Source: Gammaproteobacteria bacterium
GTDB lineage: Bacteria; Pseudomonadota; Gammaproteobacteria; UBA12402
Assembly (NCBI GenBank): GCA_050123335.1
Contig: JASFHH010000003.1
Span: forward strand, 6,615-70,614
Direction: 5' to 3'
DNA length: 64,000 nucleotides
In this document: one piece after another, positions 42,745 through 46,726 of the stretch
How positions within the stretch are numbered: the stretch's first letter is position 1
Layout of the letters: the number at the start of each line of letters is the position of its first letter
The notes under the pieces: generated by a model
Databases searched by the model: none
Seen by the model: only the letters and a program-made list of their open reading frames with translations
What the model was told of the DNA's origin: nothing
Position numbers and translations under genes: made by a program

Positions 42745-43050
42745 CAAGCTGCGAGATTTGTAAAAAATGCCAGTGCCAGTTCTAAACGGAACTCATGATT
42801 TTACAACTAGTTTGTTTTTGTAAAATCATGAGTAACCGCGCATCTGCACAACAAAAACAAAACACCAATCTGGCATGCGCGGTAATTACCACTTAGTTTA
42901 TTTCAGTGGCAGCTACCGCGTATGATAAATTTGTGTTCTTTTTTAGTTATTTTCATGGTTACCTGGAATTTTACAAAACAAGCAAGTTGTAAAATCACTA
43001 GTTCCATTTATGCCAATAGTGTAAATCTTATATCTTCATTGGAGATTGGT
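42745..43050. repeat. composite of family-D palindromic elements
   Basis: CTGCGAGATTTGTAAAAAATG; GAACTCATGATTTTACAA-n-TTGTAAAATCATGAGT; ATTTTACAAAACAAGCAAGTTGTAAAATCAC; GTGTAAATCTTATATCTTCATTGG (compare 7231-7255). Confidence 0.5.
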
Positions 43051-43117
43051 ATATACAGTTTAATCCAATGGCTATCATTATAATTGAAGCCAGTGATTAT
43101 TTTTTTAATTGGTAATC
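43048..43117 (-). pseudogene. relic copy of the arnT-like 3' end (one arm of a direct repeat flanking the F-box gene)
   Basis: The reverse complement reads LPIKKIITGFNYNDSHWIKLYIP, which matches the true ArnT-like C-terminus LPIKKIITGFNYNGGHWIKLYVI encoded at 45101-45173. About 85% nt identity over about 70 nt. Confidence 0.6.
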
Positions 43118-44737
43118 TTATTGTACACAGCATGTTTTGATTTTTTTTGATTGTGGTTTATGTTTGTATGTTAAGTTCATTATTTCTTGTGGCGTTGTTA
43201 CATATTTCTCTTTGTTACATCCAAGCTGATTGTAGACATTCTCTCCACAGCCAAATACCTTTATTTCACCACTTTTAAGTCGTACCGAAAAAACTGTATG
43301 GTCATTACCACAACTAAAATTTAATATGCTACTGTTTTTTGGAAAGCCTTTTATTTCTTGTGGCGTTGTTACATATTTCTCTTTGTTACATCCAAGCTGA
43401 CTGCAACTATTATATCCGCAGCCAAATACTTTTATTTCACCACTTTTAAGTCGTACTGAAAAAACTGTATGCTTATCACCACAACTAAAATTTAATATGC
43501 TACTGTTTTTTGGAAAGTCTTTTATTTCTTGTGGCGTTGTTACATATTTCTCTTTGTTACATCCAAGCTGACTGCAACTATTATATCCACAGCCAAATGC
43601 CTTTATTTCACCACTTTTAAGTCGTACTAAAAAAACTGTATGCTTATCACCACAACTAAAATTTAATATTCTGCTGTTTTTTGGAAAGCCTTTTATTTCT
43701 TGTGGCGTTTTTGCAGATGCTATAGTGTCAAATCCAAGAGTGTTAAGTCCAAGCTGACTGAAAAAATTATCTCCACAGCCAAATACCTTTATTTCGCCAC
43801 TTTTAAGTTGTACTAAAAAAACTGTATGGTCATAACCACAACTAATATTTAATATTTTGCTGCTTTTTGGAAAGCCTTTTATTTCTTGTGGCGTTTTTAC
43901 CTTTTCTTGATTACCAAATCCAAGCTGACCGCAACTATTATTTCCACAGCCAAATGCCTTTATTTCGCTAGTTTCAAGTCGTACTAAAAAAACTATATGG
44001 TTACTACCACAACTAAAATTTAATATTCTGCTGTTCTTTGGAAAGCCTTTTATTTCTTGTGGCGTTTTTATCTTGTCTTGATTACCAAATCTAAGCTGAC
44101 CGAGCAAATTGTCTCCACAGCCAAATGCCTTTATTTCGCTATTTTCAAGTTGTATTAAAAAAACTGTATAGTAATCATCACAACTTAAATTTAATATTCT
44201 GCTGCTTTTTGGAAAGCCTTTTATTTCTTGCGGCGTTTTTACCTTTTTTTGATTGCCAAACCCAAGCTGGCCGAACGAATTATCTCCACAGCCAAATGCC
44301 TTTATTTTGCCACTTTTAAGTCGTACTAAAAAAACTGTATGATTAGAACCACAACTAGATTTTATTTTACTGTCCATATAATTTTCTTTGAACCATGTAT
44401 TCCAACTTAATTTTTTATGTGCGGATTTGTCTTTATATTTTTTAAATTCTTCTGGAAAATTACGCCTAGAAAATTGTTGCCATACATATTCGTGTTTGAA
44501 TGCCTGGTTGAACAACTTACATACTAGTGCAAAATGAGCAATATCAGAAGATGGCGCTTTTAAAAAAAGAACTATTTCCATTAATAGTTCTAACGGTAAC
44601 TTTTCTATTTCTGCTAATTTTCTGCTTTGGAGTTTATTTTGGGATTTATCAAGGGGTACATTTTTTTTTATATTTTTCGTATAATATTTTTTCGTATAAT
44701 GTGCTAATGCACCTAGGAAGTTTGCTTTAGCAAGCAT
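43118..44737 (-). CDS. F-box + RCC1-repeat (beta-propeller) protein, eukaryotic-like effector candidate
   Basis: N-terminal F-box LPLELLMEIVLFLKAPSSDIAHFALVCKLFNQAF. Seven or more RCC1-like blades (...KAFGCGDNSFGQLGFGNQ...TPQEIKGFPKNSRILNFSCG..HTVFLVRLKSGEI...) are encoded by near-identical tandem DNA units of about 160 bp. Confidence 0.8.
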   Translation of the reverse strand: MLAKANFLGALAHYTKKYYTKNIKKNVPLDKSQNKLQSRKLAEIEKLPLELLMEIVLFLKAPSSDIAHFALVCKLFNQAFKHEYVWQQFSRRNFPEEFKKYKDKSAHKKLSWNTWFKENYMDSKIKSSCGSNHTVFLVRLKSGKIKAFGCGDNSFGQLGFGNQKKVKTPQEIKGFPKSSRILNLSCDDYYTVFLIQLENSEIKAFGCGDNLLGQLRFGNQDKIKTPQEIKGFPKNSRILNFSCGSNHIVFLVRLETSEIKAFGCGNNSCGQLGFGNQEKVKTPQEIKGFPKSSKILNISCGYDHTVFLVQLKSGEIKVFGCGDNFFSQLGLNTLGFDTIASAKTPQEIKGFPKNSRILNFSCGDKHTVFLVRLKSGEIKAFGCGYNSCSQLGCNKEKYVTTPQEIKDFPKNSSILNFSCGDKHTVFSVRLKSGEIKVFGCGYNSCSQLGCNKEKYVTTPQEIKGFPKNSSILNFSCGNDHTVFSVRLKSGEIKVFGCGENVYNQLGCNKEKYVTTPQEIMNLTYKHKPQSKKIKTCCVQ

Positions 44738-45100
44738 GGTATTTTCCCCTTTTTTAGTTTGTTTTTAACTAATAGCAACTTTGTAACCACATTTCTTGCT
44801 ATTTTAGTTTTCGCACATAGCTATTTTAGCTTATGATCAGGCTTATTTTAGCTCATTAAACTTAAGGAAATCTTACGTAATTTTAAGTCCCAAATAAACA
44901 CTTGATTATATTGATAAACTTTTTGCTATTTTTTGCAAAGTTTACAAAATTTTTCAAATCGGCTCTTATTTTAACCAATATGATTAATTTTCGATAGCTT
45001 TTGATCTTATAGTTTGCTCCATTTGTAATTAAATTTACAAGCCATAGCTTATCAGGCGAGAATTAAATGGCAACCATGCATTACGTAAGGTAAAGGTTAG

Positions 45101-46726
45101 TTAAATCACATATAATTTGATCCAGTGACCGCCATTATAATTAAAACCAGTAATTATTTTTTTAATTGGTAATGATAATTGATTGGCAAACTTCTGATAA
45201 GTTAATTGATCTAACATTATTACATTGTTTGTATGTTGTTTGATTTGTTTTAGTAACCAGTTTTTATCATTAATAAATTTTACTTTGTTGGTACCAATTA
45301 AAAAAATTAAGCTCGGTTCGTGATATTTGGTGATTAATAATGGTTTTTCATCAGTAACGTAATTTTTTGGTAAGTTTTGAATATAATTTGTTATTTTACG
45401 GCTTAACCATAAATTGTTTATTTGTGGTAAGAAAAAGTTAAATAATAATGGATAAAATAGTACAGCTCCGACAAAAAACGTAATTAAGATCTTGCGCGGA
45501 CGATGATACAACAATATCCCAGTTATAATTACTATTAATAAGATTACTAAACATAAAGTTTGTATCCAGGAGTATGATTCACGCAGTAGATGTGGTAAAA
45601 GGCATAAAGAAACTAACAAGATGGTTGAATATATTCCCCAAATAATTTTCATAATATATTCAGTGTAGCGCCATTTATTGGTTAATTGCTGGTTAATGCC
45701 AGCAGCAATTAGTAAAGCAATGGCTGGATAAACTGGCAATACATATTGTGGTAATTTAGTTGGGATTAATGCAAAAATAATCCAAGTAGGAATGATCCAT
45801 GCAATTAAAAATTTTTCTAAAGTTTTGGTTTTATTTTGCCACGCATGTGCGACGCCTTTGATGATAAATAATGATCCTGGCCAAAACATAATTGGGAAAA
45901 GTAGTAAAAAGTATCCAGGCCACGCTCCGTGTGATTGTTGACCACCAACTAATTTTGGCACGATATCACCATGAATCATATCCCATAAAAAATTACTTTT
46001 GCCAAAGATACTAAATGGAATTAACCAAGCCAGGCTAAATAAAATTAAAAATAATATACCAAATAGCGGTTTGGTTTTTTTAAATAATGACGCATCTTTA
46101 TCAATGAGCATTAAAAAAAATAAAGTTGCAAATCCAACCACAGGTGTAATGCCTTTAATTAAAACTCCTAATGCCATGCCAAACCAAAAGAATATACATC
46201 CATATAGAGATGTGGTGTGCTTCTCGCGATGGTGCCAATAAATTTGCATTAAACCAAGTTGCATAATGATCATGGTTGCCAGTAACATTGCATCGGTGGT
46301 GGCAATATGTGCTTCGGTTATTAATAAGATGCAGGCGGCAAGCAGCATTGAGCCGATAAACGCAGTTGTTTCACCCATCAGACGTTTCGTGCCTAAAAAC
46401 AATATAATGATGCTTAAAAAAGCGCCCAGTGCAGAAGGGATGCGGAATAAACCAATGGAAAGATGTTTTGCAGTTCCAAAAGTTTTTGCGCTAAGAGCTT
46501 GCAGCCAATAAATTCCAGGTGGTTTTAGGTGGCGTGCTTTGTTTTGTACTTGAATTTTTCCGAAATTATGTGATTCAATCATTTGTTTTGATGCTTGGGC
46601 GAATAATGCTTCATCGCGATCGGTTACCGGCAGTTGAAATAATCCGCTGGCGAAAATGATCAAGCTAATGATGATAAGAATACATAAGTATAGCGGCGTT
46701 TTATTCATATGCCCATCATGCCTCAA
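45101..46726 (-). CDS. ArnT/PMT-family (GT83/GT39-like) membrane glycosyltransferase
   Basis: First-loop motif LPVTDRDEALFAQASKQM; 541 aa with many TM segments. Confidence 0.75.
   Translation of the reverse strand: MRHDGHMNKTPLYLCILIIISLIIFASGLFQLPVTDRDEALFAQASKQMIESHNFGKIQVQNKARHLKPPGIYWLQALSAKTFGTAKHLSIGLFRIPSALGAFLSIIILFLGTKRLMGETTAFIGSMLLAACILLITEAHIATTDAMLLATMIIMQLGLMQIYWHHREKHTTSLYGCIFFWFGMALGVLIKGITPVVGFATLFFLMLIDKDASLFKKTKPLFGILFLILFSLAWLIPFSIFGKSNFLWDMIHGDIVPKLVGGQQSHGAWPGYFLLLFPIMFWPGSLFIIKGVAHAWQNKTKTLEKFLIAWIIPTWIIFALIPTKLPQYVLPVYPAIALLIAAGINQQLTNKWRYTEYIMKIIWGIYSTILLVSLCLLPHLLRESYSWIQTLCLVILLIVIITGILLYHRPRKILITFFVGAVLFYPLLFNFFLPQINNLWLSRKITNYIQNLPKNYVTDEKPLLITKYHEPSLIFLIGTNKVKFINDKNWLLKQIKQHTNNVIMLDQLTYQKFANQLSLPIKKIITGFNYNGGHWIKLYVI

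Follow-up and report, generated by a model that had tools for sequence, protein, structure and literature searches.

Prophages lodged in the icd gene of Escherichia coli carry a diverged replacement 3' end of that gene. Phage 21, e14 and the NC-SV prophages integrate there (PMC12803456). A second class of gene-end insertions, the cis-mobilizable elements (CIMEs), consists of decayed remnants left by integrative and conjugative elements (ICEs) or integrative and mobilizable elements (IMEs), which keep attL and attR and have lost the genes for integration and transfer (PMC5704250). Effectors of Legionella combine eukaryotic domains with a C-terminal CaaX box: AnkB carries an F-box and CaaX (PMC2916131), PelE/LegG1/MitF carries RCC1 and CaaX (PMC13081727), and RCC1 effectors are also described in PMC7542358. 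Here we analyze an islet in which a single gene of this kind, encoding an F-box/RCC1 protein, lies between two copies of the junction of an arnT-like glycosyltransferase gene and a histidine kinase-like (HK) gene. The islet lies in a 64,000-nt stretch (hereafter the window) of contig JASFHH010000003.1, positions 6,615 to 70,614, from a metagenome-assembled genome (MAG) of a gammaproteobacterium of the lineage UBA12402. Positions are those of the window.

Repeat finding in the window revealed that 43053-43116 repeats 45110-45173 over 64 nt without gaps, with 53/64 positions identical (83%; family D4). We refer to the sequence at the arnT gene as copy A and to the distal sequence, next to the HK gene, as copy B. 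A blastn search of the whole 64 kb with 45089-45173 recovers copy B as the sole strong match (E=5e-14), the next-best match being a 16-mer (E=0.004). Copy B also matches the arnT 3' end of a relative, L005, at 87.5% identity over 64 nt (blastn, E=7e-16) and is thus homologous, not similar by chance. A repeat of the arnT 3' end around the F-box gene had been proposed from the sequence of the window, and both comparisons bear it out. Its proposed extent of ~70 bp was too small: the duplicated unit is about 85 bp long and takes in a single base, the final 72 nt of arnT and 12 nt from the HK tail, so that it spans the overlap of the two genes. Past the arnT stop codon, positions 45089-45100 of copy A (GGTAAAGGTTAG) agree with the HK tail of L005 (GGTTAAAGTTAG) at 10/12 positions, and the alignment with L005 reaches 45089. 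The stretch 45101-45172 supplies the working last 23 codons and stop of arnT. Copy A thus terminates an intact gene, and direct repeats flank the insert on both sides. An extension of the repeat further upstream (AACATACAAAC, 'LTY') was rejected as out of register.

The final 12 nt of copy B, three codons and a stop, are found 320 bp away from the rest, at 42718-42729, where they lie over the HK stop codon as in the relatives; the HK-side alignment of L005 extends to 42729 (blastn). The two parts are separated by a 320-bp element resembling a miniature inverted-repeat transposable element (MITE). It is flanked by a 6-bp TATATA target duplication (42724-42729 and 43050-43055), has 45-nt inverted arms, and its predicted DNA fold is far more stable than that of shuffled sequences (z = -6.4). 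Two relatives of the element, a shorter one (about 7113-7266) and a partial one (947-1007), bring the number to only 2-3 copies in 64 kb. The short target duplication, the hairpin arms, the several copies and the lack of coding capacity are those of a MITE-like element, and we read 42730-43049 as an insertion of such an element into a dead arnT tail. Its excision brings back colinearity with the relatives. When the element and one TATATA are deleted in silico, copy B reads LPIKKIITGFNYNDSHWIKLYII and a stop, in frame, ending at the ancestral position and overlapping the HK stop codon. Copies A and B are then identical at 59/72 positions, and their reading frames stay open up to the same stop position. 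Because the MITE-like element interrupts copy B and does not create it, the similarity of the copies is not a by-product of a repeat family, an outcome that the original prediction had named as one possible refutation. Two details of that prediction change: positions 43048-43055, assigned there to arnT, are the end of the MITE-like element and its target duplication, and the '...LYIP' ending given for the distal copy is an artefact of reading across the MITE junction.

These data make chance similarity in AT-rich DNA, a by-product of repeats or an assembly artefact hardly credible as the source of the duplication. The genome has about 32% G+C and several short repeat families, and a MAG is the kind of source in which such errors would be suspected. 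Against them stand the two E values given above, the preservation of frame and stop in copy B, and its interruption by the MITE-like element. A similarity of 83% over 64 nt is also too short and too divergent to mislead an assembler, and the same two adjacent proteins are recorded by both NCBI and JGI.

Inside the 320-bp MITE-like copy there is an additional hairpin of about 130 bp. Near 7200, immediately upstream of glyQ, a shortened version of ~150 bp runs in the reverse orientation.

A protein search with ArnT recovered the source protein itself (P0001, 100% identity over 535 aa) and six relatives with 87-74% identity. We read the contigs of five relatives (L004-L008); no genomes closer than 87% ArnT identity were available. 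The arnT and HK genes converge and overlap in all five, by 4 bp in L004 and L005 and by 18 bp in L006-L008, and none has the F-box gene or the duplicated tail at the junction. In blastn maps L004 and L005 are colinear with the window on both sides of the islet, and 42722-45103 is window-only DNA. The empty junction in five relatives implies that about 1.97 kb were inserted in the lineage of the window. Judging from the same comparison, the arnT-like and HK-like genes of the ancestor were convergent, with overlapping stop codons. We consider a lineage-specific insertion with target duplication highly probable. The original prediction had seen an insertion footprint in the repeat and proposed that an uninterrupted junction be sought in relatives, with a duplicated segment lacking the F-box gene as the contrary result; the former is present in 5/5 relatives and the latter in 0/5, which supports the footprint. 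Both flanking genes retained complete ends, since the unit is present on either side of the insert; the arnT product of the window (535 aa in the database version, which begins at the ATG at 46708) equals its L005 orthologue in length. A scan of genome contigs with ArnT found only relatives of 37-43% identity, too distant for their junctions to be compared. The coordinates of the features are collected in Table 1.

Table 1. Features of the arnT/HK junction and its insert in the window
Feature	Position	Strand	Description
HK-like (HATPase_c) gene	41960..42721	+	intact, 253 aa; Pfam; convergent partner of arnT in all relatives
Copy B part 2, YII and stop	42718..42729	-	final three codons and stop of the former arnT tail; overlies the HK stop codon
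MITE-like hairpin element, 320 bp	42730..43049		TATATA duplication, inverted arms, fold, related copies
Copy B part 1, displaced arnT tail relic	43056..43116	-	first 20 codons: LPIKKIITGFNYNDSHWIKL
F-box, seven RCC1 repeats, polybasic/CaaX (CCVQ) gene, 539 aa	43118..44737	-	Pfam; sole gene of the insert
Insert-borne spacer, F-box upstream region, 351 bp	44738..45088	-	no ORF of at least 40 aa; two TTACGTAA palindromes
Copy A, ~85 bp	45089..45173	-	arnT 45101-45172, extra shared base 45173, HK relic 45089-45100
arnT-like (PMT_2 family) glycosyltransferase gene	45101..46726	-	intact; Pfam PMT_2 E=1e-14

The comparison with the relatives also bears on a different history, in which the repeats are what is left of a larger tandem duplication of arnT, mostly deleted, with the F-box gene arriving separately in the gap. 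A stray gene tail beside a full copy can be the remnant of a decayed paralogue, and the HK-tail relic that follows copy A does mark one end of a duplicated unit. Such a history would take at least three events, including a deletion that ends one base from the F-box stop codon, exactly where copy B begins. No further arnT-derived sequence is present in 42722-45100, and two arnT copies occur in 0/5 relatives. We regard this scenario as very unlikely.

Two other blocks of the window are specific to it in the comparison with L004 and L005: 46710-48494 and 53772-57755. Neither has flanking direct repeats, so insertions in this genome do not generally bring a duplication with them. The former block is a major facilitator superfamily (MFS) transporter gene; the latter comprises an open reading frame (ORF) of 459 aa without a Pfam hit and a PAS/HisKA/HATPase/REC/Hpt hybrid sensor kinase.

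The end of arnT is plastic among the relatives. L004 has an 18-nt insertion right before the stop codon (11639-11659 of its contig), adding six residues, and in L006-L008 the gene ends one codon later, hence the HK overlap of 18 bp instead of 4 bp. Within the arnT gene of the window, 120 nt upstream of copy A, positions 45292-45307 form a perfect inverted copy of a 16-nt core of the repeat (TACCAATTAAAAAAAT). L005 agrees with it at 14/16 positions, two window-specific substitutions completing the match, and the core has only three sites in 64 kb at up to two mismatches. This inverted copy may be due to chance.

The divergence of the copies was compared with that of the gene as a whole. Over the 72 coding nt, copies A and B differ at 13 positions, A and L005 at 9, and B and L005 at 10. 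The three amino acid differences between the copies (GG to DS, V to I) all lie on the side of copy B, with A keeping the residues of the relatives. The decay of the spare arnT tail came after the insertion. Gene-wide, the window arnT differs from that of L004 at 12.5% of nucleotides (28% at fourfold sites) and from that of L005 at about 15-16% (35% at fourfold sites). The first 20 nt of the unit (TTACCAATTAAAAAAATAAT) are identical in the two copies, leaving all 13 differences to the 52 nt that follow. This block, at the arnT-proximal edge, is the only long identical stretch between them. An identical block at this particular edge has P=0.009 and a 20-nt run anywhere has P=0.12; the stretch is also conserved among the relatives.

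Measured against the L004=L005 consensus, the window arnT shows 102 private changes over 1605 nt, of which 4 fall in the last 72 nt (4.6 expected); one of the four is common to copy B. Gene-wide, 34% of the private changes coincide with the outgroup state. With a third of the changes matching the outgroup, homoplasy at third positions is rife. A neighbour-joining tree places copy B with L005 (86% bootstrap), apart from copy A. Copy A had initially appeared to be imported, on the basis of this tree, of six private synonymous changes (with copy B and L005 as the reference) and of changes at 5/8 ancestral G/C third positions (P about 0.01-0.03). We withdrew this reading, since the private changes are normal by the L004=L005 standard and outgroup-state homoplasy affects the third positions. 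A duplication in place at about three quarters of the time since the L004 split would fit all the counts, and a copy A imported from a sister lineage would fit them as well.

The route of insertion that we favour, with a probability of roughly 0.4, is a reciprocal exchange between the chromosome and a DNA circle on which the F-box gene already lay next to a copy of the junction. This figure reflects the identical block at the edge of the unit and the fact that duplication of a gene end is well established for such a route. The crossover would lie in the 20-nt block, which is the only hint of an att-type exchange. Such an exchange would have used a recombinase provided in trans or one lost afterwards, leaving a CIME-like remnant; alternatively, RecA would have acted on the 85-bp homology in a Campbell-type insertion-duplication. 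Phage 21 and e14 come to occupy icd, with a replacement gene end, by the same principle. A homology of 85 bp exceeds the minimum that RecA needs. On the circle, the junction would read from the F-box stop codon through the 85-bp unit into TTACGTAATGC, that is, ...TGCTGTGTACAATAAGA, the unit and TTACGTAATGCATGG... in succession. The copy by arnT is the working tail, and the copy by HK is a dead arnT tail, with its three amino acid replacements and its MITE insertion. The original prediction had described the islet as a single effector gene without an integrase, which holds, and had likened the repeats to attL/attR produced by site-specific integration, which is possible; no recombinase was found in the islet or among the scanned ORFs, and no further att-like sequence in the collections searched. 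Its alternative of capture by recombination between a free element and arnT is as viable as a decayed integrative element. The ends of the insert have no inverted repeats by repeat finding, and 85 bp greatly exceeds the duplication that a transposase would leave.

Several observations weigh against a circular donor. No gene for a recombinase or transposase, and no recognisable recombinase relic, was detected in the islet, and none was found among the 37 ORFs of the window scanned with Pfam, which are housekeeping in kind: groEL, glyQS, pilus and secretion genes, fmt/def and two-component proteins. No att-like copy of the junction, free element or closer relative was found, in searches of little power. 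The 20-nt block reaches only P=0.12 when any run is considered and lies in a stretch conserved among the relatives. Copy A looks like an ordinary native tail, with nothing in its private changes to mark an import, and the tree that separates A from B depends on third-position sites prone to homoplasy. Finally, a single base separates the F-box stop codon from the supposed core, so that a separate recombinase arm would not fit on that side.

The searches behind these negatives covered several collections. A degenerate 40-nt pattern of the arnT tail had 0 matches in metagenome and viral contigs, with a low power illustrated by its missing the fitting JGI contig of L004. The metagenome collection scan, likewise of low power, returned no relative of the F-box protein. 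Phage DNA gave no match, and the plasmid protein search recovered nothing closer than distant RCC1 proteins, from Firmicutes and further unrelated organisms. Exact-sequence look-ups of the F-box protein and of the window ArnT (with two choices of start) returned no record. The window contains no tRNA genes. By eye, the junction has no resemblance to the gammaproteobacterial dif consensus. Dot/Icm-type secretion genes were not identified among the scanned ORFs.

The same counts agree equally well with a duplicative insertion made in place in one step, after which two initially identical copies would have drifted apart. A break or stalled fork at the convergent junction would have had foreign or paralogous DNA joined or copied in, by staggered breaks and end joining or by template switching that returned 85 nt behind the break. 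The insert is bounded exactly, on either side, by a complete copy of a single contiguous 85-bp unit. The numbers of changes are close to those expected: one window-private change is common to A and B, three are specific to A (about 3.4 expected), and 6-7 are specific to B (7.6-9.2 expected at the neutral rate). The insert has no recombinase, inverted termini or second gene, and its G+C shows no contrast with the flanks. No bacterial insertion enzyme is known to make target duplications of ~85 bp, and few templated insertions of 2 kb have been documented in bacteria; both facts count against an origin in place. The donor locus was not found, the only paralogue in the same MAG being 56% identical. 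The identical 20-nt block is mildly unexpected for a copy B that drifted neutrally, and the other insertions in the window left no duplication. Since no other part of an element survives and the counts are met without strain, we rate duplication in place only slightly below the circular donor.

The circular-donor reading can be carried further. The islet might be a minimal effector cassette lacking a recombinase, a circle-capable unit of ~2 kb made of a gene, its promoter and an 85-bp mimic of the junction, that moves between related intracellular bacteria. Such a cassette would recombine at the junction through a recombinase acting in trans or through host recombination, leaving both neighbouring genes unharmed. 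We consider this extension improbable. Whatever its origin, the islet is probably fixed by now: at 83% identity and with no identical run above 20 nt, the copies would now serve homologous recombination poorly.

The insert between the copies (43117-45088) is about 1.97 kb long and comprises one gene and its 351-bp upstream region. Both eukaryote-like domains of the cargo protein score above the Pfam cut-offs: RCC1 with E=7e-69 and F-box-like with E=1e-7 (31.9 bits, cut-off 24.3). The protein ends in ...KHKPQSKKIKTCCVQ, a polybasic stretch (KKIKTCCVQ) with a CaaX-type box. Eukaryotic domains together with a C-terminal CaaX are the domain features of a prenylated effector, which the cargo protein has at the level of sequence. 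Its closest homologue, P0122 (56% identity), ends in KIKKTKRCCIQ, and P0123 (44% identity) ends in CSIM. The CaaX-type ends of the homologues indicate that the 3' end of the cargo gene is native and that the insert boundary lies one base past a genuine stop codon. The gene of P0122 sits between grpE and a glutamate dehydrogenase gene. Its accession, MGD9108934, belongs to the same NCBI series as the window proteins MGD9107777/8, so P0122 is probably a paralogue in the same MAG. The 3' flank of the gene of P0123 has nothing in common with the core sequence.

The RCC1 blades (43180-44364) are encoded by 6.8 tandem units of 171 bp, with one spacing of 186 bp. Two adjacent units are 93% identical in DNA, which suggests a recent expansion or homogenisation within the gene; a copy number derived from a short-read MAG may be unreliable. 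Upstream of the gene of P0123, on contig L009 from the sample of L005, positions 1-101 encode in another frame a peptide ending in ...EHVWKQFCNRNFSNKFIETN and a stop, similar to the last part of the window protein's F-box region. P0123 may come from an F-box/RCC1 gene that was split or frameshifted and that the contig end truncates.

Upstream of the cargo gene, the 363 nt from 45100 to 44738 are free of ORFs and consist of the 12-nt HK-tail relic and the 351-bp spacer. The spacer has no similarity to the flanks, to the relatives or to other parts of the window. Its comparison with the HK end, the arnT body and the F-box 3' end on both strands gave nothing above shuffled sequences; an apparent inverted GGTTGCC motif was dismissed as chance. 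The palindrome TTACGTAA occurs in the spacer at 44873-44880 and 45081-45088, the second exactly at the insert boundary, and five times in the whole window (1.6 expected). The spacer also has repeated GCTAAAATA(A)GC and GCCTGAT..AAGCTA motifs. These palindromes and motifs are possibly regulatory.

Further repeats were noted in the window. A near-palindrome of 164 nt at 46707-46870, with outer arms of 25 nt (92% complementarity) and inner arms of 51 nt (78%), occupies the space from the extra MFS gene to the start of arnT and reaches 2 nt into the start codon. The window has no second copy of it, and the aligned part of L004 and L005 lacks it. A dispersed, partly palindromic repeat family of ~70-80 bp is present at 19754-19823, 22668-22732, 32470-32544 and 59560-59650, and also in L004 (1577-1664 and 2603-2757).

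The locus gives a base-resolved before and after of a eukaryote-like effector gene entering a housekeeping locus of an uncultured Legionellales-like bacterium. The five relatives with an empty site represent the state before; the duplicated junction with both neighbours intact, followed by decay of the spare copy and the arrival of the MITE-like element, represents the state after. The route by which single effector genes enter without mobility genes is usually invisible. Here the scar reduces the possibilities to two: a circular donor that brought a junction copy with it, or an insertion that duplicated its target in place. Scars of this kind are well known, and the value of this one lies in a clean example with an interesting cargo gene, not in a new principle.

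The scar resembles that of phage 21, e14 and the NC-SV prophages at icd, in that the insert sits in the 3' end of a gene with a second gene end beyond it, the proximal copy keeping the gene working and the displaced copy being a relic. Those prophages measure 15-40 kb and bring their own integrase, whereas the islet is 2 kb long, has one gene and yielded no recombinase; its duplicated unit also reaches into a second, convergent gene, which theirs does not. With CIMEs the islet shares direct repeats at a gene end and the lack of remaining genes for integration or transfer. CIMEs are recognised through an intact ICE or IME at the same att site, and no such element or integrase is known here. Campbell-type insertion-duplication likewise leaves a homologous segment in direct orientation around the inserted DNA; it is known mainly from laboratory constructs and plasmid integration, and a natural circle joining junction and effector has not been seen. 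Like transposons and insertion sequences (IS), the islet has its target directly duplicated on both sides, but these duplicate 2-14 bp and have inverted termini and a transposase, while the unit here is 85 bp and neither feature was found, which sets the islet apart from IS. The 6-bp TATATA duplication of the neighbouring MITE-like element is of the ordinary transposon kind. As for the cargo, the protein and its probable paralogue P0122 join F-box, RCC1 and CaaX, and so unite the features of AnkB and PelE/LegG1 in one protein; sequence identity to any named protein is low, and the likeness to prenylated effectors is one of sequence.

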